A DNA stretch of 64,000 nucleotides from Raja brachyura (lineage: Eukaryota), in NCBI GenBank assembly GCA_963514005.1, contig OY740795.1, positions 124,001 to 188,000 on the forward strand, read 5' to 3'. Positions 705-63,965 of the stretch are shown here, one piece after another. The number at the start of each line of letters is the position of its first letter. Positions within the stretch are counted from its first letter, which is position 1. The notes under the pieces are model-generated. The model did no database searches. It was not told the origin of the DNA and was given only the letters and a program-made list of their open reading frames with translations. Made by a program: the position numbers and the translations under genes.

Positions 705-2642
705 ATGCGATACTTCGCCATCTGGATTGTGTGTGGAGCATGTCTGACAGGTAAAACAATAGCAACAGTTGAGATGTGAAAGGGAATGCATTTGGAGTGG
801 CGACTGGAACCAGACTAAGTTGCCCGTATAAAAATATATATTGGGTAATGTGCGTTACACCACCATAGAAAACATAGAAAATAGGTGCAGGAGGAGGCCA
901 TTAAGCTCTTCAAGCCAGTTCCATGATTCATTGTGATCATGCCTGATCATCCACAATCTGCCATCCGTGCCTGCCTTCTCTCCATATCCCTTGATCCCGC
1001 TAGCCCTCACAACTATATCTAACGGTTATATTCATCCAGTGAATTGGCCGCTGCTGCGTTCTGTGGCAGAGAATTCCACAAATTCACAACTCTCTCGGTG
1101 AAAATGTTGTTTCTCATCTAATTTCTCATCTCAGCCATGATCACATTGAATGGCGGTGCAGCTCGAAGGGCCGAATGGCCTAATCCTGCACCTATTTTTC
1201 CATGTTTCTATCTTTCTATTTGTAAATGGCCTCCCTATATTTTTAGACTCAGGCCCATGGTTCTGGACTCCCGCAACATTGGGAGCATGTTTCCTGCATC
1301 TGGCTTGTCCAGTCGTTTCATAATGTTATATGTTTCTATAAGATCCCTCTCGTCCTTCTAAATTCCACTGAATACAAGCCCAATCTTTCCAATCTTCCCT
1401 ACACTGCCGCCATCCCGGGGATTAACCTCGTGAACCTACGCTGCACTGCCTCAATAGCAATGATCTCCTTCCTCAAATTAGGAGACCAAAACTGCGCACA
1501 ATTCTCTGGATGTGGTCTCACCAGGGCCCTGTAGAACTTTACTCCTATACTCTCATTATGAAAGCCGACATGCCATTAGCTATATTCTCCGGCTGCTGAA
1601 CCTGCATGTTTACTTTCAGTGACTGGTGTACAAGGCCACCCAGGTCTCGTTGCACTTCCCTTTCTTCCTAATCTGATACCATTGCGATTATAATCTGCCT
1701 CATTGTTCTTGGCGCCAAAGTGGAGAACCTCACATTTATCTACATTATTCTGCATATGACATGCACCTGCCCACTCACTGAACCTGTCCGAGCCACACTG
1801 CAACCTCCTCGCATCCTCTTCGCAGTTCACTCTGCCGCCCAGTTTTGCGCCATCTGCAAATTTGCTCGTGTTACTTTTCATTCCATCGTCTAAATCATTA
1901 ATATATATTATTAAAAATCGCGGCTCTGGCACCGAGCCTTGCGGCACTCCTCTGACCACTGCCTGCCATTCAGACAGGGGCATGTTTATTCCTGCTCTTT
2001 ATTTCCGGTCTGCCAACCAATTATCTGTCCATGTCAATACCTTACCCTGGGTTACTGTGCCATTCATTTCCATAAGGTGGGGTACTGTCCGAATCAATTT
2101 CCTTCTAATGTGATCATTGGGCTTTGTACATGGAACTGGTTAACTTAAATAATGACTATAATCTTTATTCTCTATCTTCCCTTTTGCTCTGCCTATTGCA
2201 CATGCGTTTGATTTGATTGTTTGTTTGTATTGTATTAGCTGCTCCGTTTGGATAGCATGTAATGCAAAACACTTCCGCGTATCTCGTTGCAAGTATGAGA
2301 ATAATAAAACCAAACCGAATCCATATTGTCTTCAGATCCCAGTCATGGAGATTCCGTCACACAGTCGCTGCCTTCTGCACAGAAAGAAGATGGAGAGTCG
2401 GTGACTTTCAGCTGCGCCTACGCTACCGCCGAGCTGTATTACATCTTATATTGGTACCGGCATATTCCACACTCAGGGCCCGAGTTCATACTGTGGGAAG
2501 ATTCACAAGGAAGTGTGAGATAAGCAGATTTTGCCCGTGCTCGCTTCTATGGCCGGCTCCACACCGAAACAAAATTCACTAGCTTAACCCTTTCGGGGCT
2601 GCAGTTGAGCGATTCCGCAGTTTATTACTGCGCTCTGAGGAG
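705..2642 (+). pseudogene. TRDV: TCR delta-like V segment (V1), pseudogene: leader 705-750, V exon 2336-2642, in-frame TAA at 2521-2523
   Basis: Leader MRYFAIWIVCGACLT + G|gtaaaa. Acceptor ttcag| then DPSHG-DSVTQ..FSC..LYWYRH..PEFILW..GSVR*ADFARARF..TSLTLSGLQLSDSAVYYCALR. Canonical Cys/Trp/YYC; RSS follows. Delta versus alpha is inferred from framework resemblance to shark V-delta. Confidence 0.85.
865..2045 (-). mobile_element. 5'-truncated CR1/HER1-type LINE in the V1 leader intron, with a short plus-strand CR1 3' tail nested at ~1133-1218
   Basis: GVPQGSV, YINDLD, KFAD and RT C-terminal motifs (ORF 1576-1983); catagaaa 3' tail repeats. Confidence 0.85.
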
Positions 2643-2680
2643 CACAGTGATGAAACCAGTTAAATCTTCCCACAAAAACA
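2643..2680 (+). promoter_or_regulatory. Recombination signal sequence of V1: CACAGTG, 22-bp spacer, ACAAAAACA
   Basis: Read directly after YYCALR: heptamer 2643-2649, nonamer 2672-2680. Confidence 0.93.
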
Positions 2681-2960: not shown

Positions 2961-3179
2961 NNNNNNNNNNNNNNNNNNNNNNNNNNNNNNNNNNNNNNNN
3001 NNNNNNNNNNNNNNNNNNNNNNNNNNNNNNNNNNNNNNNNNNNNNNNNNNNNNNNNNNNNNNNNNNNNNNNNNNNNNNNNNNNNNNNNNNNNNNNNNNNN
3101 NNNNNNNNNNNNNNNNNNNNNNNNNNNNNNNNNNNNNNNNNNNNNNNNNNNNNNNNNNNNNNNNNNNNNNNNNNNNNNN
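2961..3179. other. Assembly gap
   Basis: Run of N. Confidence 1.
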
Positions 3180-21192: not shown

Positions 21193-21392
21193 NNNNNNNN
21201 NNNNNNNNNNNNNNNNNNNNNNNNNNNNNNNNNNNNNNNNNNNNNNNNNNNNNNNNNNNNNNNNNNNNNNNNNNNNNNNNNNNNNNNNNNNNNNNNNNNN
21301 NNNNNNNNNNNNNNNNNNNNNNNNNNNNNNNNNNNNNNNNNNNNNNNNNNNNNNNNNNNNNNNNNNNNNNNNNNNNNNNNNNNNNNNNNNNN
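21193..21392. other. Assembly gap
   Basis: Run of N. Confidence 1.
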
Positions 21393-27777: not shown

Positions 27778-29584
27778 NNNNNNNNNNNNNNNNNNNNNNN
27801 NNNNNNNNNNNNNNNNNNNNNNNNNNNNNNNNNNNNNNNNNNNNNNNNNNNNNNNNNNNNNNNNNNNNNNNNNNNNNNNNNNNNNNNNNNNNNNNNNNNN
27901 NNNNNNNNNNNNNNNNNNNNNNNNCTACCCGTAACAAGGTAAATGACACATTTTCGCTAATGCCAGTTTGCTGTGGTCTAATAAATCTTGAACATATAAT
28001 CTCGGAGCTGCCTGCAATAACTTACCGAGTACAAGTGCTCCGATCGTGGGGCGTATGTACTTAACATAGTGAAACCGCGGTCTCAATGAAGAAGCTGCCA
28101 ATTCGCGAACGCGAAGCCGCGGAGTGTGTTTGGATCATGTCCGCGGGGGCGGAGGGGGGCGTGGGTGGGGGCTTGGGGGGGGGGGGAGGCCGTACATAGT
28201 GCCGTCCGTAGCGTTCGTTTCCAGGCCCCGACCATGGGAGAAAAACGGACGAATATTCATTGCACCTTATAGGCTTCCATTGGAGTGAGAAATGGTCAGA
28301 AATGGCTGATGTTTATGTATAAATAAATTGGTGCATGTGAACTTGAACTTGAACTAATTTATCTATGGTTGTAACAGTGTTATTCTCATTAACATTAAGA
28401 AGAGGTTGACATTTTATGAATTGAAGTCCATGCAGACTTAATGACTATGAGATGGGTTTTTTTTGTAGCCTTTGCCTGACCCTCCACTTGAACTTGAACT
28501 AACTTATCAATGGACCTATGAAACTTATCAAAAGACTTGGAATCTGATGAAGAATATTCAGATGAAGATCAGATGTAATGTAAACAAATAAATTGGGGGA
28601 TTAAATGAATAGGTAAAGTTTTATTTTAGTGTCAATCGTTTCACTGTTTATTTGGGTAAATTATTTAAACAATGTGTGAATTACTTATGAGAATGGCGTG
28701 CTGGTGAATTACAGTGCGATAGTCCTGTGACAGTGCGACATCCACACATACATCCACACACATATCCATCCGCAGGCAGGCATACATGTACACATGCATC
28801 CACACACATACATCCACACATAGATCCACACACATACAGCCACACTTACATACACACATCCACAAACACATTTGACAGCTATACACAGACACACACACAA
28901 ACTACAGATACTCAAATAATGCAACACATTTAGGGTTATTTTAGGTTAAAGGTAATAGCCCTCATTTGCAAAGGCACCATCGGGGGGGGGGGGGGGGGTC
29001 TCTAACATAAATATAGGCTCATTATAGCTTAAAATGAATACTCATCGAGTAAACATCAGAGCATCAGAAATAAGACAGGTCTCTTACAGGTCTGTCACCC
29101 ATCCTGGCCCTGCCCCAGTCGCACTATGGCAGCTACCCCCACTCTTCCCACTATGGTAGTCAGTGGGGTTCAGTTAAAGTGGGAACCCAGAGGATCTGTC
29201 CCGACCCTTTAATTAGGCAGGTTCATGAGCCCTTAAAACCCGGGACCTCTGCTGCAGTCTCATTACATTTCCTATTAAAGCGACTGGAAGATGCCTTGCA
29301 GGAATGTCCCCCAGCCTGGCACTTCCCCAGTCCCACTCTGGCCGTGATCCCACTCTGCACACTGGCAGTCAGTGGGGTCCAGTAAAGGGAGGACCCCACA
29401 GGAGCTGTCCTCACCCATTATTTAGGCTGGTTCAGGAGCAGGACCTCTGCGACAGTGTCATTAAAAAAAGTCTCAATTATATTCAACATATTATTTTTAT
29501 ATAATATAATTATACTTAATTATATATGATTACAATCATATTTACAAGTCATATATATTATATATAGGTATAATAATATATAGT

Positions 29585-30330: not shown

Positions 30331-31304
30331 TTTTTAAAAGGACTGCAACACGGAAATAGGCTGCCCATGGTGTAATATGTGCATTGGCCACTTGATGACG
30401 CTTACTTTCCCGCTCTCATTTTCCAATTTGTTTAATTAATTAACGTGCAACTTTTGGCAGTGACATCCTTCTCGATTATATTTCATCTAAATCTGTGGAA
30501 ATGTTCATGTTGTTCTGTGACGTGGGTCACAAAACGGATTTCTAGACACATTTTTGATGCTCGGCCCACAGCCCAATGTCACTGTCAGGGGATGCTGCAT
30601 GATAATATTGGAAGAGTTGACGTATGGACACCTGGAGGAGTGTATTAACACGTAATTTATTAGCCATTGGTGAACGACAGAGTGCTCGAGCAATGATTTA
30701 TTTTAGAACAAGATATCTTCATTTTAATTCATAATTGACAGAATATTTTATTTTCTTCACAGATTGTGAGGGAAGACGAAAAATAGGTAGATACAAAGTT
30801 GACCCTCCACCAGCCCCAACGTTGTAGTATCAGGGAAACAGTATGCGGCTTACTGCCTCTTAGGTGCAAATGAACAGCAGGCAGTAACTCTGCAGGAAAA
30901 TGATAGATAACATTTCTGGTCAGGATCATTCTTCCGTCTGAAAGTAGGGCGAGGCCACTGGATGCAAGAGTAGGCCAGAACAAGGCAGGGAAGGCAACAA
31001 ATGTCTAAGAAAGAAATTAGCCCATAATCACCCATTATTGACTGGGGAACAAGTGATAACAAACAACTACAAAAATGCGAGCAGTACAACTAGTATGATG
31101 ACTTAGCTGGGGGAGAGGGTGAGAGAAAGGGAGACATGTAACATACGATAAGCTGTCCCTCCATTTTTCGCGTGGCCTCGCTCTAACAGTTGAGGAGGAC
31201 AACGACAGAAAGGTTTACATGGGTATGGGAACAGGTGATAAAATGTTTGCCCACCGGAAGAACGTAAAGGCAAATGCGGAAAATAATTTGTTACCGTTCA
31301 TAGG

Positions 31305-31665
31305 ACCATAGAATCACAGAGTCATAGAGTGATACAGTGTGGTATCTGGGCCTTCGGCCCAACTAGCCTCACCGGCCAACTATATCCCAGCTACACCAGT
31401 CCCACTTGCCTGCACTTGGTCCATATCCCTCCAAATCTCTCCAATCCACGTACCTGTCTCATTGTTTCTTAAACGATGGGATAGTCCCAGCCTCGACTAC
31501 CTCCTGTGGCAGCTTGTTCCATACGCCCACTACCCTTTATGTGAAAAAGTTTCCCCACGGATTCCCATTAAATATGTTTCCCTTCTCCATAAACCTATGT
31601 GCTCTGGTAGTCGATTCTCTGGGCAAAGGTTTCTGTGCATCTACCCGATATATTCCTCTCGTGAT
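31305..31665 (-). mobile_element. HER1/CR1-type 3' fragment
   Basis: catagagt tail; reverse strand encodes YKITRGIYRVDAQK..TRAH..FF. Confidence 0.65.
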
Positions 31666-32106
31666 TTTGTATTTCTCACACTGCTCACCTGTAGCTTTAC
31701 ATTCGATAGATGTTTTCCGCATACATAAGGTATTTTAATCACGGCATCTGTATGGAACTTTACACAATCTAGATCATCCGCTGCTAAAACAGCAGATTCT
31801 CTTTGAACCGATGATGAAAGGAAATCATATATACAACACGTTGCACATATATTCACTCATTTTGCAAACAATATGTTCTCGGCATATGTGTACAAATTCT
31901 TGAAAAACAGAAGTGGAATGATTGAACTGAGCACTTGGGAATACGCACATATGGCGCGATTGAGCCCATGAACCCCCGAAGCACTTGCGCGTGCACGACA
32001 GGGCGAATGGACATAGAATGTCCACACATTAAATGTTGTATTTTCATATAAACCCTACAGCATGAAGCCTAGCAGGTCGATCGTTTTTGTTATATTAATT
32101 TAACTA

Positions 32107-34139
32107 TCAGTTTGCCGATTTAAATATCTTTCCAGTGTAACGGATTGGAATGGTTAGCACGCGGAACAGCTCCTCTCTGAACTTTTTCTGTGTCACGATG
32201 TAAATGGCCGTGTTGGTGCAGGAGCTCAGCAGCTGAAGCATATATCCAACCCTTTCCAATTCTTCCAAAGGGTATCCCGAGGACTTGTACATAAACACTT
32301 TCAAACTTCGAACCGCTATAAAGTGTACAACACTTGTGGCCCAGAGCAGGATGAAGCAGCTCGAGATTGCCAGAAGTAAAACGACCGACCGTCTGCGGTT
32401 CACCATCTCCTGGTCTTTCTTTTTCTCCCCACCGCTTAGGTCTCGGAGGTTCCTGCGGACCCGACTGGCCATGAAAATACGCCTGACAGTGAGCGCGTTA
32501 AACAACAAAATCAGGCAGAATGGAATCGCCGGGGTGAACAACTGTTCGATCCAAGAGTACACCATCCATTCGGGACGCATATAAAACTCTAAAGGTTTGA
32601 GGCAGCCGTGCAGCCCACCCGTTCCGGGATAGGAAATGTATGCGAAGGGCAAGGGAAGGTTTTTAAGGCAGACGAACGGGCTCACTGTCAGGATAACAAT
32701 CGACGCGCTTCTCTCGGTGCAATATTTTACTTTCATGTTCTGAGTAGAAATCGCAACAAAGCGATCAAATGTGAAAGCGACTGTGAACCATACAGAAGAA
32801 TCCACCGCCACGGGAGCGAGGTAGAATATAATTTTGCACACAGGAGTGTAGGGCAAGGAAGCAGGCCACAAATAAATATCAGCAATCCGACGAAGTATCA
32901 CGTCAATGAGAAGCACAGGGAGGTCCGCGGTCGCCATGGCTACCATGTAACGAGTGGTGCACTTGGAGAGGCCGCACTTGCCACGGGACAGGATCATAAT
33001 CGCCATCAGATTGACTGGGAAGGAATAAAAACATAAGATGATTAATTGTGTGCGGTATGCGTCGGTAGGTGAGGGTTATTTAAACGTGCGAATATATGGG
33101 ACGATCAAACAACGTTTGCTATAAAGATGTTCAATCGTCAGCAAATTATTAAATAACTGGGTACCAAAATGAGTGAGATTTCCGTTTCTATTTATCTTCA
33201 CATATTTCTGCCAACCGTTTAATATTGAAGCTTTGTTATCCCGGCATAATCTCTGCAGCTACAGTCTATATTATATGTACTTGAAAAACCTATCTTAAAA
33301 TTGCCTCCCGACCGCAGGGGGAGCATGTACGGTTGTTCACAGTGATGTTTTTTGTTGAACAAGTTGTTCATACGATCTTCAAATCTGTCTCTGCGAAATT
33401 ATCCCTGTGAAATTTTAAGAGCTTTACAGATAATGCTGTGGCAAATTACTGGACGGTGTGTTTTTTTTCTTTCTACCGAGTGCACTACGCTCTGCGGAAC
33501 CGGTAGTCTCACACACTGCGATTACGCCGTGTCGCTTGCCCCACCAACAGAGCAGGTGCGGGGCATCGTTTGCAGCCAAAATCAGTGCAGGCTAAATTTG
33601 TATCAGAGTCTGTGAGCCGCCATCCATCAACGAAGCCAACGCGTTCCCTCTCTCCGAAGATGCAAATTGGTTTATTTTAGTGTAGTTTAAATGTACAGCA
33701 TCGAAGCGAGTCCTCCGGTCCATCGGGTCCGCGCACACCAGCGACCCACGCAGAACAACAATATTCGACACACACTAGCGACTTAAAACAAATATATACT
33801 AAATCAATTAACCTACAAACCTGTCTGTCTTGGAGAGTTGGAGGAAACAGAAAATCTCGGAGAAACCCCACGTTGGTCACGAGAAGAACCTACAAATTAT
33901 GTAAAGACAAGCAACCGTAGTGGGGAGCGAGCCCTGCACCATCTATCGCTGCGCCACCGTGCAGCACTTAATCCTGCTGGGTTATTCAGTATGTTCTCTT
34001 AATCTTTACTCCTATGCACTTTTCAAACAGTCTTTGTCAATTCAATGTGATGTACCGAAAATTACCTACCGGGTACTCCAATTGCTGCAAGAATCGGGTA
34101 ATACACAGATTCTATATACACGGTCTCACTGTAATACAT
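32107..34139 (-). CDS. GPR139/GPR142-like class A GPCR, copy 1 ('probable GPR139' type): join(34139-34070, 33014-32107), 325 aa
   Basis: Exon 1 MYYSETVYIESVYYPILAAIGVP G|gtaggt; acceptor cccag|TC. Exon 2 VNLMAIMILSRGKCGLSKCTTRYMVAMATADL..SVWFTVAFTFDRFVAI..PFCLILLFNALT..FILLW..LSSCTNTAIY. Seven hydrophobic segments, no stops. Confidence 0.9.
33676..33965 (-). mobile_element. HE1/V-SINE-like SINE in the intron of GPCR copy 1
   Basis: ggagaaaccccacg..gtcacgagaagaac..cgctgcgccaccgtgc; orthologous copy at 58950-59225. Confidence 0.7.
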
Positions 34140-34799
34140 TTTAATGCGACGGTCTAGGCGATCACTCCTGGTGCTGCCACTCAGCGATTGTCAGCGAAAC
34201 GAACCAATCTCTGGCAAATTTATAAAGTAAATAAAGGAGAAAATAGGCAATTAGATTCCATCCCTGTGGACATTACTTACAGACTTTGGAACAAACATGT
34301 ACTTGTTTTCAATGTAATATTCAGATATCACAATCATGCGGGCGACCGCTCCATACTTTTCCAACAGCAGGCAGTGAAGCATGAATTTAAATAAAAAATC
34401 CAAACTAACGCTAGCGCTGTGAAGTTGCTCGCGAGTGTTCCGAGCAGCGATTTATTTCGTTGAACCTTACGTCCGATGACGGGAGAAGGAAAGCTGTCAA
34501 TTCTGGCCTGTACCTGTGCAACTTGAGTATCCAGACGGCGATAGCAGAGCCAGACCGCAACGCAGTATCGGCACCTGAGCATATCCACTGGGCACTTTGA
34601 GGCAGTTTTCTCAGAAAAGTTACTGATGGGGCGAAAGAGCAGGAAAATAGAGAAGAACCGCAGAGTTTATCAAGCATTAATAAAACACGAACATGTAAGT
34701 TAATTATCATGGCAGCGTCGTTTGTCGGCTCCGTCCCGGGGTTAGCAGCCAGAGGTCGGAAAGGATGGGGGGGGAGGGGGGGGGGGGGGTCATGAGGTC

Positions 34800-37700
34800 A
34801 TCAGGGTTCGGAGTAAAATAAGGCCATTCTGCCTTTTATGTCTCATGCGCCTTTCAATCATGACGTATCTATACCCTATCCTACACCACTCTCTTACTTT
34901 CTGCTCATAACCACTGATACCTGTACTATTCAATCATCGATCTATCTCTGCGTGGAAAATATCCACAGTTATCCCCCACGGCCTTTGTGACAAAGTATCC
35001 CACAGATTGAAAATAGAGGACTAAGAAGGCGTGTTGACCAAAGAGGTCTATGAAGACATGAGAGAGGAGCTCATGCTATTCTGAAAAGGAACCGTTCACA
35101 CCTGCTCTTTGCTTCCTGTCTGCCAACCAATGTTTTATCCATGTCAACACGCTAACCCCACTACTAATATTGTCCGCTATTTGCTTCCAATATTGTCTAT
35201 TGTCTATTGAGTTGGCCAAGGTAAACTGGAAAGGGATCCTAACAGGAAAGACGATGAAACAGCAATGCCTGGAATTTCTGTGCATATTCTGGAAGACGCA
35301 GGATCATTTAATTCCAAAAAGGAAGAAAGATTCTAGTTGAGTAGGAGGCAACCGTGGGTGACAAGAGATGTTAGGGATAGAATAAAACTAAAATAAAAGA
35401 TGTATAACACGGCAAAGAGTAGCCGGAAGCTGGAGGATTGGGAAACTTTCATAACACAACAGAAGGAAACAAACCGGGCTATACGGGCCGAAAAGATGAA
35501 GTACGAGGGGAAGCTAGACAGGAATAGAAGGAAGGACAGTGAAACCTTATTTAGATATGTTAAGGGAAAAAGAATATCCAAGTCAAATGCGGGTCCCTTG
35601 AAGGCAGACACGGGTGAAATTATTATGCGTAACAAGAAATGAAAGAAGAGTTCAACATGTACTTAGGATCTGTCTTCAGTAATGGAGCGAGAGGGAAAAC
35701 GGGGTATTGCAGACCAGTCAGCCTTACGTCGGTGATGGAAAAGATGCTGGAGTCAGGTATTAACGAGGTAACAATGGGGCATTTTGATAGCAGTAAAAGG
35801 ATTAGTCCAATTCAGCATGGATTTATGAAAGTTAAATCATTCTTGTCTCTTTTTTGAGGATGTGACAAGTATAATGGATGAAGGGGAGCCAGTGGATGTA
35901 GTGTATCAAGGCCTTCTTGAAATCCTTTGATGAGGTCCCGCACGGGAGACTGGTGAATACAATTAGAGCATATGGTATTGGGGTAGAGTATTGACATGGA
36001 TAGAAAATTGGTTGGCAGACAGGAAGCCAAGTGTAGGAATGAGCGGGTATTCTTCAGAATGGCAGGCAGTGGCTAGTCGACTGCCGAAAGGATCGGTGTT
36101 GGGGCCGCAACTGTTTACCATATATATTCGTGCTTTGGAAGAGTGAATTAGGGGCAACCGGCAAGTTGGCAGTGTGAATTGGGAAGAGGATGTTAGGAGA
36201 TGGCAGGGTGATCTGGGCAGATGCGTAGCCGATGCAGTATAATATAGATAACATAGAAACATAGAAACAGATAAAATAGGAGCAGGAGCAGGCCGTTCGG
36301 CCCTTCGAGCCAGCACCGCCATTCATTGTGATCATGGCTGATCGACCGCTATCAATAACCCTTGCCTGCCTTCTCCCCATATCCCTTGACCCCACTAGCC
36401 CCCAGAGCTCTATCCAACTGTCTCATAAATCCATCCAGTGATTTGGCATACACTGCCCTCTGTGGCAGGGAATTCCATAACTTCACACCTCTCTAGGTAA
36501 AATAGTTTTTTCTCACCTCAGTCTTAAATGACCTCCCCTTTATTCTAAGACTATGGCTCCTGGTTCCGGACTCACCCAACATTGGGAACATTTTTCCTGC
36601 ATCTAGCTTGTCCACTCATTTTATAATTGTATATGTTTCTATAAGACCCCCCTAAACTCCTTCTAAACTCCAGTGAGTACAAGCCTTGTCTTTTCAATCT
36701 TTCCTCATATGACAGCCCCGCCATCCCAAGGATCAATCTCGTGAACCTATGCTGCACTGTCTGAATCACAAGGATGTCCTTCCTCAAATAAGGAGACTAA
36801 AACTAGACACAATATTCTCGATGTGGTCCCATCAACGTGAGGTTATCCACTTTGATGCAAAAATAAGGGGGCATATTATTATCTCAATGGGGTTATGTTA
36901 GGTAAGGGGGAGGTGGAGCGAGACCTGGGTGTCCTTGTACACCAGTCTCTGAAATATGGTGTGCAGGTACAGCAGGCAGTAAAGAATGCTAATGGAATGT
37001 TGGCCATCATAACAAGAGGATTTCAGTCCAGGAGTAAAGAGGTTCTTCTGCATTTGTACAGGCTCTGATGAGAGCTCATCTGGAGTATTGTGTACAGTTT
37101 TAGTATCCTAATTTAAGGAAGGACATCCTAGTGATTGAGGCAGTGAAGCGTAAATTCACGAGATTGATCCCTGGGATGGCGGGACTGTCGTGTGAGGAAG
37201 GATTGAAAAGACTGGAGTTTAGAAGGATGAGAGGACTCTTAAATAAACATATAAAATTATAAAAGGACTGAACAAGCTAGATGCACATGTAGGGGCCACA
37301 ATTTTAGAATAAAAGGGGAGGGGCATTTAAGCGTGAGGTGAGGAAAAAACCTTTTCACTCTCAGAGTTGAGAATTTGAGGATTCCCTGCCACAGAGGGCG
37401 GTGGGGGCCAAATCACTGGATGGATTTAAGATGGAGTTAGATAGATCTCTCGGGGCAAGTGGAATCATGGGATATGGGGAGAAGGCAGGCACGGGTTATT
37501 GATTAGGGGCGATCAGGCATGATCACAATGAATGGCGGTGCAGGCTCGAAGGGCCGAATGGCCTCCTCCTGCACGTATTTTCTATGTTTATTTGTTTCTA
37601 TTCGCCACGCTCTGACTAAAGCCATTTCTCATCGGCTCCATCCGAAAAGAACGTCCGTTAATTCTGAAGCAATTACCTCTACTCCGAGACCTTCCTACTC

Positions 37701-51410: not shown

Positions 51411-53250
51411 AGACATAGACATAGACATAGAAAATAGGTGCAGGAGTAGGCCATTCGGCCCTTCGAGCCTGCACCGCCATTCAATGTGATCATGGCTGAT
51501 CATCCAACTCAGTATCCCGTACCTGCCTTCTCTCCATACCCCCTGATCCCTTTAGCCACAAGTGCCACATCTAACGCCCTCTTAAATATAGCCAATGAAC
51601 TGGCCTCAACTACCTTCTGTGGCAGAGAATTCCAGAGACTCACCACTCTCTGTGTAAATAATGTTTTCCTCATTTCGGTCCTAAAGGAATTCCCCCTTAT
51701 CCTTAGACTGTGACCCCTTGTTCTGGACTCCCCCAGCATCGGGAACAATCTTCCAGCATCTAGCTTGTCCAACCCCTTAAGAATTTTGTAAGTTTCTATA
51801 AGATCCCCCCTCAATCTTCTAAATTCCAGCGAGTACAAGCCGAGTCTATCCAATCTTTCCTCATATGAAAGTCCTGACATCCCAGGAATCAGTCTGGTGA
51901 ATCTTCTCTGTACCCCCTCTATGGCAAGGATGTCTTTCCTCACATTTGGAGACCAAAACTGTACGCAATACTCCAGGTGTGGCCTCATGAAAACCCTGTA
52001 CAACTGCAGTAGAACCTCCCTGCTCCTATACTCAAATCCTTTCGCTATGAATGTTAACATACCATTTGCTTTCTTCACTGCCTGCTGCACCTGCATGCCT
52101 ACTTTCAATGACTGGTGTACCATGACACCCAGGTCTCGTTGCATCTCCCCCTTTCCTAATCTGCCACCATTCAGATAATAGTCTACCCTCATGTTTTTGC
52201 CACCAAAGTGGATAACCTCACATGTATCCACATTATACTGCATCTGCCATGCATCTGCCCATTCACTCAGCCTATCCAAATCACCCTGCAGCCTCCAAGC
52301 ATCCTCCTCACACCTAACTATACCCCCCAGCTTGGTATCATCTGCAAATTTGGAGATGTTGCATTGAATTCCCTCGTCCAAATCATTAATATATATTGTA
52401 AATAGCTGGGGTCCCAGCACTGAGCCTTGCGGCACCCCACTAGTCACTGCCTGCCATTCTGAAAAGGACCCGTTTACTCCTACCCTTTGCCTCCTGTCTG
52501 CTAGCCAGTTCTCTATCCACATCAATACTGAACCCGCAATACCGTGTGCTTTAAGTTTGTATGCTAATCTCTTATGCGGGACCTTGTCGAAAGCCTTCTG
52601 AAAGTCTAGATATAACACATCCACTGGTTCTCCCTTATCCACTCTACTAGTTACATCCTCGAAAAATTCTATCAGATTTGTCAGACATGATTTTCCTTTC
52701 GTAAATCCATGCTGACTTTGTCCAATGATTTCACCACTTTCCAAATGCGCTGCTATCCCATCTTTAATAACTGACTCTAGCAGTTTCCCCACTACCGATG
52801 TTAGACTAACTGGTCTGTAATTCCCCGCTTTCTCTCTCCCTCCTTTTTTAAAAAGTGGGGTTACATTAGCTACCCTCCAATCCACAGGAACTACTCCAGA
52901 ATGTAAGGAATTTTGAAAAATTCTCACTAATGCATCCACTATTTCTGTGGCTGCCTCCTTGAGTACTCTGTGATGCAGACTATCTTGCCCTGGGGATTTA
53001 TCGGCCTTCAATCCGTTCAATTTACCCAACCTCCCGGTTAACCTGGATTTCACTCAGTTCCTCCATCTTATTTGACCCCCGTTCCACTGCTATTTCCGGC
53101 AGATTATTTATGTCTTCCTTAGTGAAGACAGAACCAAAGTAGTTATTCAATTGGTCTGCCATGTCCTTGTTCCCCATGATCAATTCACCTGTTTCTGACT
53201 GCAAGGGACCAACATTTGTTTTAACTAGTCTCTTTCTCTTCACATATCTA
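51411..53250 (-). mobile_element. Young 5'-truncated CR1, near-identical inverted partner of 25191-27035
   Basis: 514-aa RT ORF 53053-51509; ttctt at both junctions (putative TSD) within an older minus-strand CR1. Confidence 0.92.
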
Positions 53251-55544
53251 TTCTTCACTGCCTGCTGTACCTGCACGCCAACTTTAAGTGAATGGTATAC
53301 CAGGACACCCAGGTCTCGCTGTACCTCCCCCTTACCTAGCGTAACTCCGTTGAGATAATAACCTACCCCCTTGTTTTTGCCGCCAAAGTGGATAACCTCA
53401 CATTTATCTATATTATACTGCATCTGCCACGCGTCTGCCCACTCACTCAACCTGTCCAGGTCGCCCTGTAATCGCCTCACATCCTCTTCACTGCTCACAC
53501 TGCCACCCAGCTTTGTGTCGTCCGCAAATTTGCTAGTGTTGCTCCTAATTCCCTCCTCCAAATCATTTATATATATGGTAAACAATTGTGGTCCCAACAC
53601 CGAGCCTGGCGGCACCCGCCACTGCCTGCCATTCTGAAAAGGACCCGTTCACTCCTACTCTTTGCTTCCGGTTTGCCAACCAATTTCTATCCATGTCAAC
53701 ATCCTACCCCCAATAATATGTGCTCTAATTTTAGTCGTCTTTTTACTTGTCACATCCTCAAAAAGTTCCAGAAGTTTAGTCAAACACGATTTCCCTTTTA
53801 TAAATTAATGTTGAATTGGACTAATCCTTTTACTGCTATCCAAATGCTCCATTATTACCTCTTTAATAATTGACTCCAGCATCATTCCCACCACCGAAAT
53901 CAGGCTAAATGGTCTGTAATACCCCGTTTTCTCTCTCGCTCCTTTCTTGAAAAGTGGGATAACATTAGCTATCCTCCAATCCACAGGAACTGGTCCTGAA
54001 TCTATTGAGCCTTGTAAAATGATCACCAATGCGTCCACTATTTCTAGAGCCACCTCCCTGAGGACCCTGGGTTGCAGACAATCAGGCCAGGAGATTTATC
54101 ATCCTTTAGTCCCTTTAGTCTACCCAATACTATTTCTCGCCTAATGATAATGTATTTTAGTTCATCTACCTCTTTCGTTGCTCTGTCCTCCAGTGAACCT
54201 GAGAGATTGTTTGTGTTCTCCTTAGTGATGACAGATCCGAAGTACCTATTCAACTCTTCTTCCATTTCCTTGTTGCCCATAATTATTTCACCCGTGTCTG
54301 CCTTCAACGGACCCCCATTTGACTTTGCTACTCTTTTCCCCTTAAGATATCTAAAGAAGCTTTTGTTGTCCTTCTTTATATTCCTGGCCAGCTTCCCCTC
54401 GTACTGCATCTTTTCCGCCCGTATTGCCCGTTTTGTTTCCTTCTGTTGTCTTATGAAAGTTTCCCAATCCTCCGGCTACCAGCTACTTTGGAGACATTTG
54501 TGGAGTAGTTTAAGTTAATGGGAAACATTATCTCCAATGACATTAAACGGGGGGCTACCATCAACTCCTCAGTCAAAAAGGCACAATATAGGATGTACAT
54601 CCTACGGCACCTGAGGAAGCACAATCTGCCACAAGCAATGATGGTCCAATTCTACATTGCCATCGTAGAGTCTGTTCTCACCTTCTACATCATGGTCTGG
54701 TTTGGCTCAGCCAACAAGCGCGTCACCTGGAGGGTGCAGCGAATCGTCCAATCAGCAGATAAGTTTATTGGCTGCAACCTTCCCTCCATTGATGAACTGT
54801 ACACTTCAGGGGCCAGGAAGCGAGCGGGCAAGATCATCTCTAACCCCTCTCACACTGGCCACAAACTCTTTGAATCACTCCACTCTGGAAGGCGACTCCG
54901 GATTGTCAAACCTTCCACAGCCATACATTAAAACAGTTTTTATCCACGAGCTGTTGCTCTACTCACCAGTCAAAAATCTGTAGCCTCCCTTTGATCTGGT
55001 ATTTTGTTGGTTCACATGCTTGATCTGTGGTGTTTTATCATTAATGTTTTATTATTATTAATGTTTATTTTTTCTGAGCCATTCGTAACTGTCACAGTAT
55101 GTCATGTTGTTACTTGTGGGCGGAGCACCAAGGCAAATTCCTTGTATGTGACTACTTGACCAATAAACCTACTTACTGTTACCTTTACTTACTGTTCATT
55201 TACACGCTGAATGGCCACATCGCGCTATATCACACGGGTATTGCGCAGACGTTGTTTCACAATCGCTGATTTGCTCATTTTTTCAATTGCACTTTGCGTC
55301 AAACATCAATGCTATCTGCTTGAGACTATAGTTCAGGGCAAAAGTAAATGAATACGGGCATCTCCCTCTCTTTCTGCTGTTTTATTGCTGAAACTAAACA
55401 TAGAACGAAAATAACGCCATGGATACCAGTCATTGTAAAACCTTCTCCTTCGACAAACACCATTACCAATGAGCACAAGCAGATTGGTCGGAAATCGTAT
55501 TTCAATAAAATGCAGCCCTCACAATTGAACAAGCCATCAAATGG

Positions 55545-55770
55545 ATCCTTCGAAGGTAGCCGAATATGCTCGAGAAATTATGCGGGTCAGGCGGCATCTT
55601 TGGAGCGAAGGGTTCCCGCCCGCCCCCCAGCCCCACATCAGTCTGAAGAAGGGTCACGACCCGAAACGTCACCCTTTCCTTCGCTCCACAGATACTGCCT
55701 GACCGGGTGAGATTCTACCGCCTTTTTGTCTAGCTTCGATTTTTTTTCAGCATCTGCAGTTCTTTCTTAA
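55545..55770 (+). mobile_element. Penelope-like terminal remnant: inverted repeat flanking a minimal hammerhead ribozyme core (55643-55670)
   Basis: CTGAAGA-A-GGGTC(AC)GACCC-GAAA-CGTC; 55548-55605 is an imperfect inverted copy of ~55677-55740. Confidence 0.7.
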
Positions 55771-57078
55771 TCAAATGGAACCCGTGCCGTTTATAAATTA
55801 AAGCGGGAATTTTAGGTACAAATTGTTTTGCCAACGTGTTCTTCGTTCCGATTTACAAATTCCCTAATCGTTAATTGGATGTTCGTTGCAACCAACACAG
55901 AAACATTTCATTGGGTTTATGGAAGGAGCAGCCAAAATAGCTGGTTTGGAAAGGAACCGGAGAAACTGGTTTATACTGAAGAATGACGCAAACTGCTGGA
56001 GTGACTCGGCGGGTAACGTAGCATATCTAGAGAAAACGGACATATCATGTTTCTGGTCGGGACCGTTCTTCCACCTGAAAGTAGAGCCGAAGGCAATGGA
56101 TGTCTGTAAAGGCCTCAACAATGCAGGGCCCGCTACAGGTGGCCAAGAAGAATTGAGGCCATAATCAACCATTGTTGGCTGGGGAGAGGTGATACCGAAC
56201 GAATACAAACATGCGAGAAATTCAACTAGTATGATGACTACGTTGGGGGAGAGAGGGAGAGAAATGTAGGGAATCCTGGGGTCATTTGGAATCAGAGCGT
56301 TCAAAGATCAAACCACCGAATTGTAAGATGCACAAGCGAAATGTGAGGTGCTGTTCCTCCATTTTGTGCGTGGCCTCATTCTAACCGTTGAGGAGGAACA
56401 AGGCAGAAAGGTTTATATGGGAATGTGAAATGGAATTAAAATTTGTGCAGCCGGGACATCGCGTTACCCAAGGCGGTATTTGAGCCTTGGGTAACGCGAT
56501 TTAATAACTGCAGATTCTCTTGAAACCAAAGGCCCCGTCAATGCGAAATCAAACGGTTTTTTCCCCATGATGAAATGGAATAACAAATCCAACGTGCTCG
56601 TTTTTAACTGAAAACTAGTCTTTCTGCACTCGTTTTGAAAATAATATGTTCGAGGTATATGAAAACATATTCGTACAAAGAAATGTTGATAGATTCAACT
56701 GAACACTTGGGCATGCGTAGATCTGGTCGGAGTCCATTGAGTCCATGAACGTACTAAGGAGCTGGGCGTAAAATATCCACAACTTAAATGTTAGGTAGAC
56801 AAAAATGCTTGAGAAACTCAAGCGGGCATCTATGGAGCGAAGGAATAGGTTGCTGAAAAAACTCAGCGGGTGAGGCATCGTCTGTGGGGCAAAGGGATAC
56901 CTATTCTTTCACTCCATCGATACTGCCTCACCCTCTGAGTCTCTCCAGCATTTGTCTACCTTCGATTTTTCCAGCAGCTGCAGTTCTTCTGAAACTAATG
57001 TTTCAACTAAATTTGTGTTTATTCATATAAATACGATAACAAAACGACGCACGGGTTGTTGTGATATTATTTTTACTA

Positions 57079-59399
57079 TCACTTTACCGATTTAAATATC
57101 TTTCCAGTGCAACGGATCGGATATGTTAGCACACGGAACAACTCATCTCTGAACTTGCTCTGAGTCACAGTGTAAATGGCCGTGTTGGTGCAGGAGCTCA
57201 GCAGCTGAAGCATAGATCCAACCCTTTCCAATCCTTTCATAGGGTTTGCCCATGACCTGCGTATAAACAAACCCAAACTTCGAACAGCAATAAAATGTGC
57301 GACACTTGTCGCCCAGAGCAGGATGAAGCAGCTCGAAATTGCCAGAAGTAAAACGACCGACCGTCTGCGGTTCACCATCTCCTGGTCTTTCTTTCTCTCC
57401 CCACCGCTGAGGTCTCGGAGGTTCCTGCGGACTCGACTGGCCACGAAAATGCGCCTGATGGTGAGCGCGTTAAACAACAAAATCACGCAGAATGGAATCA
57501 CCGGGGTTAACAACTGATCGGTCCAAGAGAACGCCATCCATTCGCGACGCATATAATAATATACGTCTTTGACACAGCCCAGATTCAGTTCAAATGGGAT
57601 GTAAGAAACGTATGCGAAGGGCAAAGGTAGGTTCTGAAGGAAGATGCATGGGGTCATTGCCATGATAACAATCGACGCGGTTCTCTCGGTGCAATATTTG
57701 GCTTTCATATTCTGAGTAGAAATCGCAACAAAGCGATCAAAGGTGAAAGCGACAGTGAACCATACAGAACATTCCACAGCCACAGGAGCCAGGAAGAGTG
57801 TTATTTTGCACACAGGTGTGTAGGGCAAGGAAGCGGGCCACCAATGAATATCAGCAATCCGATTTAATATCACGTCAATAAGAAGCACAGAGAGGTCTGC
57901 AATTGCCATGGCTACCATGTAACGAGTGGTGCACTTGGAGAGGCCGCACTTGCCACGAAACAAGATCACAATCGCCATCAGATTCACTGGGAAGGAATGA
58001 AAACATAAACTGATTAATTGTGTGTGGTACGGGTTGGTGGGTGAGGGTAATTTAAACATGCGCATATTTTGACGAAATGTTGCCTATTTCCTTCGGATGA
58101 AGAAGGATTTAGACTCGAAACGTTCCCTATTTCCTTCGCTCCATAGATGCTGCCTCACCCGCTGAGTTTCGACAGCATGTGTGTCTACATTTGAGAACAT
58201 GATGTCAAGCAATGGCGTTCCGTGAAGCACTGCAATTATAATTACATACATCCTTCAGCGTTAAACAAGGGTAACAATATAACGAGTAGGATTTGATGCT
58301 GAATAGCGGGCGGGCCTCCGTGTTTTACCTGACAATACAATTGCTGAAGTATCTCAGTGGATCAAGTAGCATCTCTGGATGACATGGGTAGGCGACGTTT
58401 CAGTTCGGGCCCTTTCTTCAGTCTCCGATTGGAGGAAGGATCCCGACACGATACGTCGCCGTCGTCGGTCTTCAGGAGATGCTACAAGACCCGGTGAGTT
58501 ACCCAGTACGTTGTTATCCCGGCATGATCGCTGCAGCTACAGTCTCTGTTATCTGTACTTCTAAAAATATATCTTAAATTTGCCTCCCAATAGAGGGGGA
58601 TCATGTCTGGTTGTTCACACTGACGTTTTTTGTTGAGTAAGTTGTTCATACGATCTTCAAATCTGTCTCTGCGAAACTATCCCTGTGAAATGTTAAGAGT
58701 TTTACAGAAAATGCAGTACCAAATTAATGGACGGGGTGCATTTTTCTTTCTGCCGAGTGCACTACGCTCTGCGGAACAGGTAGTCTCAAACACAGCGAGG
58801 ACGCACTTTCGCTTGCCCTACCAACAGACCAGGTGCGGGGCATCGGTTGTAGACAAAATTCGTGGAGGCTACATTTGTACCAGAGTGTATGAACGGCATC
58901 CGTCAATCAAGCCAACGCGTGTCCTCTCTCCGAAGATGTAAATTGCTTTATTTTAGTGTAGTTTGGATGTACAGCAGCGAAGCGAGTCCTCCGGTCCATC
59001 GAGTCTGCGCAGACCAGCGACCCACGCAGACCAACAATATTCGGCACACACTAACGACTTAAAAAAAGTATATACCAAATCAATTATCCTACATACCTGT
59101 CTGTCGTGGAGATTTGGAGGAAACCGAAGAACTCGGAGAAAACCCATGCTGGTCACGAGAAGACCCTACAATTTCTGTAGTGGGGAGCGAGCCCTGCACC
59201 ATCTACCGCTCCGCCATCGTGCTGCACTAAACCCTGCCGTGTTATTCAGAATGTTCTCTTAATCTTTACTTCTCTGCGCGTTTCAAACATTCTGTGTTTG
59301 TTCAAAGTGATGTGCCGACAATTACCTACCGGGTACACCAATTGCTGCAAGAATCGGATAATACGCAGATTCTGCATCCAAGATAGCAATATTATCCAT
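57079..59399 (-). CDS. GPR139/GPR142-like class A GPCR, copy 2: join(59399-59330, 57986-57079), 325 aa
   Basis: Exon 1 MDNIAILDAESAYYPILAAIGVP G|gtaggt; acceptor cccag|TG. Exon 2 VNLMAIVILFRGKCGLS..FTFDRFVAI..LSSCTNTAIY. Same exon sizes as copy 1 (70 + 908 nt). Confidence 0.9.
58950..59225 (-). mobile_element. HE1/V-SINE-like SINE in the intron of GPCR copy 2
   Basis: Orthologous to 33676-33965. Confidence 0.7.
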
Positions 59400-60039
59400 T
59401 TTGATGCGACGGTCGAGGCGATGACTCCTGGTGCTGCCACTCAGCGATTGTCAGCGAAACAAACCAATCTCTGGCACATTTATAAAGTAAATAAAGGAGA
59501 AAATAGGCAATTAGATAACATCCCTGAGGACATTACTCACAGACTTTGGAACAAACAGGTACTGTTTTCAATGTACTATTCAGAAATCACAATCATGCGG
59601 ACGACCGCTCCATACATTTACAACAGCAGGCAGAGAAACATGAATTTAAATTAAAAATCCAAACTAACGCCAGCGCAGTGAACTTGCTGGCGAATGTTCG
59701 GAGCAGCGATTTATTTGCTTGAACATTACATCCGATGACGTGACAAGGAAAGCTGTCATTTCTGGCTTGTACCTGTGCAACTTGAGTTTCCAGACGGCGA
59801 CAGCAGAGCGTAGCGCAGTATGGGCACCTGAGCATATCAACTGGGCACCTAGCGTCAGTTTTCTCAGAAACGTGGCTAATGGGGCGAAAGAGCAAAAGAA
59901 GAGAGAAGAACCGTAAAGTTTATCAAGCATTAATAAAACACGAACATGTAAATTAATTATCGTGGCAGCGTGGATTGGCGGCTCCGTCCCGGGTTAGCAG
60001 CCAGAAGTCGGAAAGATTGATACGGACACGAGGGGTCAT

Positions 60040-63000
60040 GAGGTCACAAAGGTTCGGAGTAAAATAAGGCCATTCTGTCCATTATGTCTCATCCGCCATT
60101 CAATCATGAATTATATATACCCACTCCTCCACCACTCTCTTACTTTCTGCTCATAACCACTGACACCTGTACTAATCAATATATATATATATATACGTGG
60201 AAAATATCCACAGATTTAGGCCCCACAAAGTATTCCACAGATTGAACACATAGGACTATGAAGGAGTCAGTTGAACAAATGGACTATGAAGACATGAGAG
60301 AGGTGCTCATGCTATTCTGAAAATGACCCGTTCACATCTGCTCTTTGCTTCCTGTCTGCCAACCAATTTTCTATCCATGTCAACATGCTAAACCCCAATA
60401 CCAATATTGTCCGCTATTTGCTTCCAATATTGTCTATTGTCTATTGAGCTGGCCAAGGTAAACTGGAAAGCGATCCTAGCAGGAATGGCGGTGGAACAAC
60501 AATGGCTGGAATTTCTGGGCATGATCCGGAAGACGCAAGATCATTTAATTCCAAAAAGGAAGACAGATTTTACGGGGAGTAGGAGGCAACCGTGGGTGAC
60601 AAGATAAGTTAGGGATAGTATAAAATTAAAAGAAAAGATGTATAACACAGCAAATAGTAGCCGGAAGCCAGAGGATTGGGAAACTTCCACTGGACAACAG
60701 AAGGAAACAAAACGGGCAATACGGGCCGAAAAGATGAAGTACGAGGGAATGCTGGACAGGAATAGAAGGAAGGACAGTAAAAGATTATTTACATATGTTA
60801 AGGGGAAAAGAGTAGCAAAGTCAAATGTAGGTCCCTTGAAGGCAAACACGGGTGAAATTATTATGCAAGGAAATGGAAGAAGAGTTGAACAGGTACATCG
60901 GATCTGTCTTCAGTAAGGAATACATAAACCATCTCCCAGATGTACTGGAGGGCAGAGGCTCTAAGGGGGTAAAGGAACTGAAAGACATTTCCATTGGGTG
61001 ATAAATAGTTTTGGGTAGGCTCATGGGCCTAAAGGATGATAAATCCCCTGGGCTTGATAGTCTGCATCCCAGGGTCCTCGGTGAGGTGGCTCTCGAAACA
61101 GTGAAGGCATTGGTGATTATTTTCCAACGTTCAATAGATTCAGGATCAGTTCCTGTGGATTGGAGGATAGCTAATGTTATCCCACTTTTCAAGAAACGAG
61201 GAGAGAGAAAACGGGGAATTACAGACTAGTTAGCCAGACCTCGGTGGTGGGAAAGATGCTGGAGTCAAGTATTAAAGAGGTAATAATGGATTATTGGTAT
61301 AGCAGTAAAATGATTAGTCCAAGTCAACATGGATTATGAAAGTGAAATCATGCTTGACTATTTTTTGAGGATGTGACAAATACAATGGATGAAGGGGGGC
61401 CAGTGGATGTATTGTATCTGGACTTTGAGACAGCCTTTGGTTAGGTCCCGCACGGCAGACTGGGGAGCAAATTTAGGGCACACGGTATTGAGGTTGCGGT
61501 GTCGATATGGACAGGAAATTGGTTGGCAGACAGTAAGCAAAGAGTAGGAGTGAACGGGTCCTTTTCAGAATGGCAGGCCGTGGCGAGTGGAATGCCCGGT
61601 GTTGGGGCCTCAACTGTTTACCATATATATTAATGATTTTGAAGAGGGGATTATGAGCAACACGGGTAGGTTTGCGGATGACACAAAGCTAGGTGGCAGT
61701 GTGAATTATGAAGAGGATGTTAAGAGGTTGCAGGGTGACCTGGACAGGTTGAGTGACTCGGCAGATGCGTGGCAGATGCAGTATAATATCGATAAATGTG
61801 AAATTATCCACTTTGACGGCAAAAACAAGGGGGCAGATTATTATCTCAATGCGGCTGGTTAGGTTAGGTAAGGTAGAGGTGCAGCGAGACCTGGGTGTCC
61901 TTGTACACCAATCTGAAAGTTGGCGTGCAGGTACAGCAGGCAGTGAAAAAAGCTAACGGAATGTTGTCCTTCATAACAAAAGGATTTCAGTATAGGAAAA
62001 AAGAGGTTCTTCTGCAGATGTATATGTCTCTGGTGAGACCACATCTGGAGTACTGTGTAGAGTGTTGGTCCTAATTTGAGGAAGGACATCCTAGTGATTC
62101 AGGCAGTGTAGCGTAGGTCCACGAGATCGATCCCTGGGGTGGTGGGACTGGCATATGAAGAGAGATTGAACAGACCGGGCTTGTATTCGCTGGACATTAG
62201 AAGGACGAGGGAGGACTTTATAGAAACATATACAGTATAATTATAAAAGGACTAAACAAGCTGGATGCAGGAAAAAAATCCCCATTGTTGCGCGAGTCCA
62301 GAGTAAGGGGTGCACCGTTTTAGAATAAAGGGGTTATTAAGACTGAGGTGAGAGTTGCGAATTTGTGGATTGTCTGCCACAGAGGGCAGTGGAGGCCAAA
62401 TCACTCGAAGGATTTAATATAGAGTTAGAGCTCTTGGGGCTAGTGGAATCAAGGGATAAGGGGAGAAGGCAGACACTGGTTATTGATTGGGGACGATCAG
62501 CCATGATCACAATGAATGGCGGTGCTGGCTCGAAGGGCCGAACGGCTTCCTCCTGTACCTATGTTTCTATATTTCTCCTGTTTTCTATGTTTCTATATTT
62601 CTATGTTCCTATTCTCCACCCTCTGGCTAAATAAGTTTCTCATCGTCTCCATCCGAAAAGAACGTCCTTTTATTCTTAAGCAATTACCTCTATTCCGAGA
62701 CTTTCCCACTCGCAGCAACATCCTCTCCACACCCACTCTATCCAAGCCTTTCACTATTCTGTATGTTTCAATGTGGTCCCCTCCTCATTGTTCAAATCTC
62801 CAGTGTACACAGGCCCAGTGCCGACAAATGCTCATGGTAGGTTAACCTACTAATTCTTGGTAAACTTCCTCTGGACCCTCTCCGGATCCAGCACATCCAT
62901 GCTCAGATATTGTGGCCATAATTGCTCACAATATTCCAAATGCGGCCTTCTCGGCGCCTTATACAGGCTCAGCATTACAACCCTGTTTTGGATACGAAGC

Positions 63001-63965
63001 ATCTTCAAATAGATGCAGGCATTGAATTTGCTTTAATTAGTACCGACTCGACTTGCAGATTAACCTTTTGGGAATCCTGCATCAGCACTCCTAAGTCTAT
63101 TTTCATCTCCGATTTCTGGATTATCTACCTATTGAAAACAAATATTCAACGCCTTTTTGCTCCAAACAAAATGCAAGACTCCACACTTTGCTACACTATA
63201 TTCCATCTTCCACCATCTGCCACTCACCCAACCTGGCCAAGTCCTTCTGCAGAGTCCCTGCCCTCTCTGCAGCACCTGACCCTCCTCCTATATTCGTATC
63301 ATTCGCAAACTTGGCCACACATCCTTCAATGCCCTCATACAAAACATTAATATACAACATATCACTCGTCACTGGCAGCCAACCGGATAAAGCCCCCTTT
63401 AGTGCCACGTTTTGTCTTCCACCCAGCCAACCTGCTCTCCATGCTAGTTAGTATCTGCCCTTTCCTTCCGTGGGTTTTCATCTTCCTTAGCAGCCTCACG
63501 TGTTGCCCATTATCAAAGTATTTCTAGAAATCTGAGTAAACAACATTTACTGACCACCGTTGTCTTGAGTATTTACCTTTTAAAAGGATCACAGAAACAT
63601 TGTAAAGCAAGACCTCCCCTTCACAATGCCATGCTGACTTCGACCAATTTTATTGTGAACTTCTAAGTACTCCACAACCTTATCCTTTATCGTGGACGCT
63701 AAAACCTTACCAATCACCGAAGTCAGACAAACCAGCGTCTGGTTCCCACTATTCTGCCTTGCTCGCTTCTTGTGCATCGGGGTAATATTGCCAATTTTCC
63801 AATCATCTGGGACCACTCCAGCCTCCACTGATTCTTGAAATATCACTTTGAACGCCTGCAAAACTCTGGAGCCACCTCTTTCAGAACACTCGGGTGTGGT
63901 CCATCTGGTCAGGATGCGCATGCACCTTCAGCACGTTCAGCATCCCAAGCACCTTCTCCAGAGTT
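60040..63965. mobile_element. Degenerate CR1 fragments on both strands upstream of GPCR copy 2
   Basis: KSPGLD, FADDTKL and 3' tail motifs; colinear with 34800-40200. Confidence 0.8.

Follow-up and report, generated by a model that had tools for sequence, protein, structure and literature searches.

GPR139 and GPR142 are single-copy genes in mammals. The chemosensory receptor families OR, TAAR, V1R/ORA as well as V2R/OlfC are characterised by tandem copies, lineage-specific expansion, a variable ligand face and a constant signalling face. The orphan receptors GPR210A/B, which stand beside GPR139/142, occur in coelacanth, gar and teleosts (Rinne et al., 2019; PMC6504862), and the portion of that paper's text available to us does not mention sharks. 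For the catshark, 34 V2R genes and 4–9 genes in each other chemosensory family are given in the accessible text of PMC10116579. Here we analyzed a stretch of 64,000 nucleotides of the skate Raja brachyura (assembly GCA_963514005.1, contig OY740795.1, positions 124,001 to 188,000 of the forward strand), referred to as the window. It carries two G-protein-coupled receptor (GPCR) genes, A and B, on the same contig as a cluster of T cell receptor (TCR) V segments. The pair belongs to a family of many copies. We consider it fairly probable, judging from sequence comparison, that A and B bind different ligands and signal through the same G protein, as members of an expanded orphan family related to GPR139/142.

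Divergence within the receptor gene pair

Both genes, and all features given for them below, are on the minus strand. Gene A comprises exon 1 (34070..34139; 70 nt with codons 1–23 plus 1 nt, encoding the N-terminus and the first half of transmembrane helix (TM) 1), an intron of 1055 bp (33015..34069) and exon 2 (32107..33014; 908 nt), which encodes the remainder of the seven-helix receptor including the stop. The exon 1 product agrees with the N-termini of the skate relatives P0001, P0003 and P0004. Gene B comprises exon 1 (59330..59399), an intron of 1343 bp (57987..59329), of which about 440 bp near the 3′ end do not align to the gene A intron, and exon 2 (57079..57986). Both introns are GT-AG introns of phase 1, and each gene encodes 325 amino acids without stop or frameshift. 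The gene models thus agree with the original prediction, made from the letters alone, of two intact 325-residue paralogues with identical exon sizes. The two genes align without gaps at 76.9% amino acid and 85.6% nucleotide identity.

Both proteins matched the Pfam family 7tm_1 with 61.2 and 60.9 bits against a cut-off of 30.5. No other Pfam family was matched at E ≤ 0.01, and there was no match to an OR, TAAR, V1R or V2R profile. The AlphaFold model of gene A (pLDDT 84.6) contains seven helices, helix 8 and a hairpin in extracellular loop (ECL) 2. In generic residue numbering, the class A anchors N1.50, D2.50, R3.50, P5.50, W6.48, N7.49 and Y7.53 are present, as are C3.25 and the ECL2 cysteine. 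Foldseek matches of the model were peptide and chemokine receptors with TM-scores of about 0.65–0.7, and no single ligand class stood out. A and B are class A (rhodopsin-like) GPCR genes. Both carry DRF for DRY and NTAIY for NPxxY, as had been noticed earlier; DRF (118 of 131 sequences) and NTxIY-type motifs are family-wide and not peculiar to the pair.

With domain limits taken from the AlphaFold model, A and B differ at 36 of 68 extracellular residues versus 39 of 257 elsewhere (Fisher P 7e-10). The extracellular differences fall on the N-terminus (9 of 12 residues), on ECL2 (14 of 23; codons 149–171, 32572..32640 in gene A and 57544..57612 in gene B) and on ECL3 (11 of 19; codons 258–276, 32257..32313 and 57229..57285, respectively). 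The A type of ECL2 is common to P0001 and P0002, the B type to P0003 and P0004. In codons 199–257 (32314..32490 in gene A), which span intracellular loop (ICL) 3 and TM6, only 4 of 59 residues differ, 3 of 34 in ICL3 and 1 of 25 in TM6. The heavy substitution of the N-terminus, ECL2 and ECL3 and the near-invariance of ICL3/TM6 had both been described correctly, and the sequence strings quoted for them are as stated. The broader statement that divergence lies mainly on the extracellular face holds for the overall count but not for every domain, since ECL1 is little changed (2 of 14) and TM4 is divergent (9 of 25). An origin of the ECL2 difference by frameshift and compensation is unneeded, as the ungapped alignment preserves frame and cysteine.

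The synonymous divergence (dS) between A and B, 0.21–0.24 over the whole gene, is 0.19 for ICL3 and 0.40 for TM6; silent changes are unclustered along the gene (permutation P 0.43). A recent conversion tract behind the ICL3/TM6 identity, which had been raised as a possible explanation, is thereby excluded. As silent divergence is normal there, the constancy of ICL3/TM6 is due to purifying selection. With the same inner face and a different outer face, A and B likely sense different molecules.

Counting estimates of the ratio of nonsynonymous (dN) to synonymous divergence were 1.67–1.95 for extracellular sites versus 0.34–0.38 elsewhere. A pairwise maximum-likelihood (ML) codon model with one clock gave an omega of 2.08 outside versus 0.34 elsewhere, and the difference, on which the proposal of diversified loops depended, is clear (p 7e-15). 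In the same model the extracellular omega exceeds 1 with p 0.0018. In ECL3 we estimated 13.7 replacement versus 1.3 silent changes, and the extracellular dN (0.42) is roughly three times as high as the divergence of the intron (0.14).

Comparison with other skates suggests a history that goes beyond the first reading of the pair. The A and B types of ECL2 are each found in the window, in Amblyraja and in Leucoraja. For residues 135–171 the tree places the A types together and the B types together, and five alternatives were rejected by the approximately unbiased (AU) test (p ≤ 0.0104). For residues 27–134 and 172–257 this paralogue tree was itself rejected (AU p 0.006 each), and a tree with the window pair together was preferred. 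The AU test favours no tree for residues 258–276; for the protein as a whole the paralogue tree is preferred. In gene A, 8 of the 9 informative sites in codons 58–93 (32806..32913), which form a likely old conversion tract, are B-like, and 20 of 24 sites after it are A-like (MaxChi permutation P 0.0006); gene B becomes A-like past residue 171 (MaxChi P 0.03). The AU regions were picked after inspection of the site pattern; in the MaxChi test the choice of break is accounted for. Since three skates have both ECL2 types but their flanking helices cluster by species, the genes appear to be mosaics, which likely arose through old gene conversion of the scaffold with two ECL2 types persisting. Judging from these trees, ECL2 predates the species split, and part of its excess divergence would therefore be age.

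An expanded family in cartilaginous fishes

Of 4125 candidates in a search with exon 2, 1311 proteins reached E ≤ 1e-10; the counts of taxa, names and contigs given here cover the best 120 of these matches. A source name was available for 117, all of them chondrichthyan and from 13 species, and 114 of the 117 are called probable or putative GPR139. Heptranchias accounts for 49 of the 120, on at least 24 contigs, and Heterodontus for 28. These numbers support the lineage-expanded family of the original prediction. The closest relatives among the matches listed are two Amblyraja proteins from one contig and two Leucoraja proteins from one 208-kb contig. These four skate models are 75–81% identical to the A/B pair and fall into the same A and B types.

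A wider protein search resulted in 99 clusters (50% identity) at E ≤ 1e-30 and, beyond those, in coelacanth, salamander, teleost and amphioxus relatives at 25–33% identity. We placed 79 rows in a quick ML tree built without true GPR139 or GPR142. In this tree the A/B subfamily includes skates, rays and sharks, with Callorhinchus as sister. The subfamily has undergone tandem expansion of its own in Heptranchias, Pristiophorus and catsharks, and another Amblyraja contig carries a sister pair belonging to it. Salamander proteins group with the shark clade (support 99, on a long branch and at 32% identity), and the coelacanth and teleost rows fall outside this clade at an open fork. As the salamander relatives P0236 and P0280 join the shark expansion, the lineage would be older than the divergence of cartilaginous from bony fishes.

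Annotation of the family is poor, since only 50 of the 120 models carry the usual exon junction motif. Many database models, among them P0013, P0022, P0028, P0030, P0032 and P0038, fuse neighbouring copies or start with an unrelated first exon. The RefSeq models of sharks, rays and chimaera called ‘probable G-protein coupled receptor 139’ belong to the same family, and their names are automatic. Short contig pieces from four runs and three organisms aligned at gene A; some are 99% alike and most 90–95%, and this hints at further copies. Single contigs (runs X1 and X3) omit 442 bases (32388-32831) or 1370 bases (32680-34051), and in a single contig (runs X1 and X3) a base is added at 34138, just past the start codon. 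These gapped or base-added contigs are possibly dead copies in related animals.

The pattern of variability across the family was assessed in 51 disjoint close pairs (at most 25% different), chosen greedily among 131 aligned sequences. Differing sites amount to 19.5% in ECL1, 22.7% in ECL2 and 26.0% in ECL3, compared with 6–12% in the helices and 3–10% in the inner loops. The outer loops exceed the helices in 46 of 51 pairs and the inner loops in 42 of 51. At 30 positions that we take to line the ligand pocket, 17.6% change versus 5.2% in the inner half (P 2e-9; 50 pairs, with A/B excluded). Positions 3.29, 3.32, 2.65 and 7.39 change in 32–38% of close pairs versus 5% for the inner half.

Several observations weigh against the reading that the outer face was selected for different ligands. 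When the loops were given a separate clock, the extracellular omega was 1.80 and exceeded 1 only at p 0.15, with p 0.50 for ECL2 alone and p 0.058 for ECL3 alone. The counting tests for a ratio above 1 were borderline (bootstrap P 0.053 and 0.018; Fisher 0.106 and 0.050). The set of 51 contains orthologous as well as paralogous pairs and at least one pair of isoforms. The pocket is not enriched over other outer-half positions (17.6% versus 13.5%, P 0.12; 50 pairs), so the whole outer half is variable and not the pocket alone, and some of the signal could stem from relaxed constraint there. In the other skates the mosaic is seen in proteins only, and unseen paralogues could mimic part of it. 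The diversifying selection that had been proposed therefore stands as far as extracellular dN/dS far above background is concerned, but not as a significant excess over 1 with a free clock. As ECL2 is also older than the rest, positive selection is only partly supported; on the extracellular face we regard it as likely but not established.

Ordinary birth-and-death duplicates with one endogenous ligand would explain part of these data, if their loops were unconstrained, escaped conversion and are older than the scaffold. The free-clock omega, the age of ECL2 and the absence of pocket-specific enrichment all agree with such duplicates, and the post-start insertion and internal deletions in single contigs hint at dead copies. 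They account poorly for the replacement changes in ECL3, for an extracellular dN well above intron divergence, for the frequent change at the four helix positions named above and for the many intact-looking copies retained across the 13 species. We consider this explanation rather unlikely. In the reading that we favour, the pair would have arisen before this skate parted from Amblyraja and Leucoraja, and gene conversion would later have swapped parts of the helical scaffold between the copies while both ECL2 types persisted, and selection would have favoured new loop and outer-helix residues. The family is predicted to work as a sensory-type repertoire that responds to varied peptides or to small cues resembling amino acids, acting most likely in chemosensory or barrier cells.

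Duplication unit and neighbouring TCR V segments

The tandem duplication that comprises A and B spans at least 9 kb. Its first copy lies at 30913..40200 and its second at 56050..63965, where it reaches the window end; the copies form collinear blocks of 74–89% identity that include remnants of long interspersed nuclear elements (LINEs). The intron and 5′ flank are easily alignable, as had been reported, with 13% differences over 818 aligned intron bases and 10–12% in the flank. Fourfold sites diverge more than the intron (28 of 124 versus 106 of 818, P 0.008), that is 22.6% versus 10–13% in the introns (33233-34069 and 58511-59329) and 5′ flank. This lower divergence suggests that the non-coding parts are younger or constrained. 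The 200 bases upstream of the two start codons are particularly similar. Two young LINE reverse-transcriptase copies flank gene A at 24898-26937 and 51509-53053. They are 97.5% identical over 1847 bases, lie in opposite orientation and have open frames of 679 and 514 codons.

Seven V segments were found in the window. V1 (2344..2646, plus strand) is inverted and has an internal stop. The other six, all on the minus strand, are of TCR alpha/delta type: V2 (10444-10083), which is broken, V3 (11893-11597), V4 (15618-15322), V5 (16952-16656), V6 (19017-18721) and V7 (20861-20571). V1 (2344-2690) has the best recombination signal of the seven, near-consensus with a consensus heptamer. Mammals carry, close to the delta constant gene, a V segment in inverted orientation, and V1 recalls that arrangement. 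V2, V3 and V4 (10182, 11600 and 15325, minus) share the same non-consensus heptamer with two mismatches and a 23-base spacer; the recombination signal of V5 gave no match at the two-mismatch limit. The rearranged V-J record P0121, in which we take a motif to be that of a J segment, is 80% identical to V3, and this V family is therefore used. By this likeness the array fits the TCR alpha type.

V2–V7 share the strand of the GPCR genes, and their recombination signals point away from them. Genes A and B lie 11,246 and 36,218 bp from V7, matching the 11 and 36 kb on the strand of V2–V7 first described. There are three assembly gaps (2961-3179, 21193-21392 and 27778-27924); two of them fall in the interval from V7 to gene A, which makes 11 kb an approximate figure. 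No further V segments were found between 20861 and 64000 by tblastn, and no recombination signal was matched at the GPCR genes in the window. Within the window, genes A and B are not among the V segments of the TRA/TRD locus. In mammals, olfactory receptor genes flank TRA/TRD.

The proximity of gene A to V7 on the same strand would fit an immune-sensing pair tied to the TCR alpha/delta locus, with thymocyte or T-cell expression and common regulation. The available text of PMC10751288 places sawfish TCR delta at chr12:55.6 Mb, and the nearest sawfish relative is on a 57.8-Mb contig, an arrangement that would fit linkage if this contig were chr12. The V-segment protein searches (2 matches; best 120 of 169) returned no cartilaginous-fish V protein with a contig. 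Because A and B are located beyond the distal end of the V array in the sequence covered by the window, and the family is dispersed over the Heptranchias contigs and a second Amblyraja contig, the TCR neighbourhood is likely positional, and we regard an immune pair as improbable.

Relation to known receptors and significance

Among PDB chains, the family profile matched human GPR139 first (82.4 bits; next 60.5), and the first match in an atlas was also named GPR139. Human GPR139 (PDB 7vug, 9m42) and GPR142 share the class A fold with the A/B family and are the nearest relatives of its profile with a solved structure. Compared with GPR139, the family has an extended ECL2 that contains a cysteine pair and an extended, basic ICL3, and its TM3 cysteine is absent from GPR139 in the alignment. 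Gene A alone reached 27.7 bits with GPR139, which came at rank 9 and was outranked by the receptors for prolactin-releasing peptide and ghrelin. Orphans of salamander and coelacanth are far closer (114–115 bits). The agonist-critical residues of GPR139 are given as F109, H187, W241 and N271 in the accessible text of PMC5430874. Here F109 is matched by P91, H187 by E/D180 and N271 by Y/S281, and only W6.48 is kept, in 131 of 131 family sequences. With three of four key pocket residues not kept, the ligand analogy to GPR139 that was drawn initially is weak. By their sequences, A and B are GPR139-related and not to be classed as GPR139 orthologues. That they are true GPR139/GPR142 orthologues sensing tryptophan and phenylalanine, as the name on 114 matches and the first rank among PDB chains might suggest, is very improbable in view of the gene A score, the replaced pocket residues, the TM3 cysteine and the closer orphans.

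Like GPR210A/B, the A/B family consists of non-mammalian orphans related to GPR139/142, and coelacanth P0235 and teleost P0253 and P0259 are near relatives of it. It may differ from GPR210A/B in that the coelacanth and teleost lineages appear separate from the shark clade in the quick tree. The family is like the chemosensory families in its expansion and diversified ligand face and unlike them in sequence, where 7tm_1 alone is matched. In the full-text literature, which covers few subscription papers, we found no paper on expansion, evolution or expression of the family, and GPR139/142 were absent from the searched supplements of PMC8455134 (12 of 24 files) and PMC10115646.

Tentatively, and well short of an expectation, A and B could be one cluster of an overlooked chondrichthyan chemosensory family derived from GPR139/142. 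Such a family would hold tens to hundreds of genes per genome and outnumber the known olfactory families, with a selected ligand face and with ECL2 types recombined onto scaffolds homogenised by conversion. According to the accessible text of PMC10116579, the odorant, TAAR and V1R repertoires of sharks and rays are very small, and whether this restricts their senses is stated there as open. Concealed by the automatic label ‘probable GPR139’, this large family of orphan GPCRs, whose outer face changes fast, is an immediate candidate for the missing sensory or surveillance capacity; should its expression prove dull, it would be an ordinary expanded orphan family. The A/B pair is a natural swap experiment for ligand finding, and human members of the clade are orphan drug targets.

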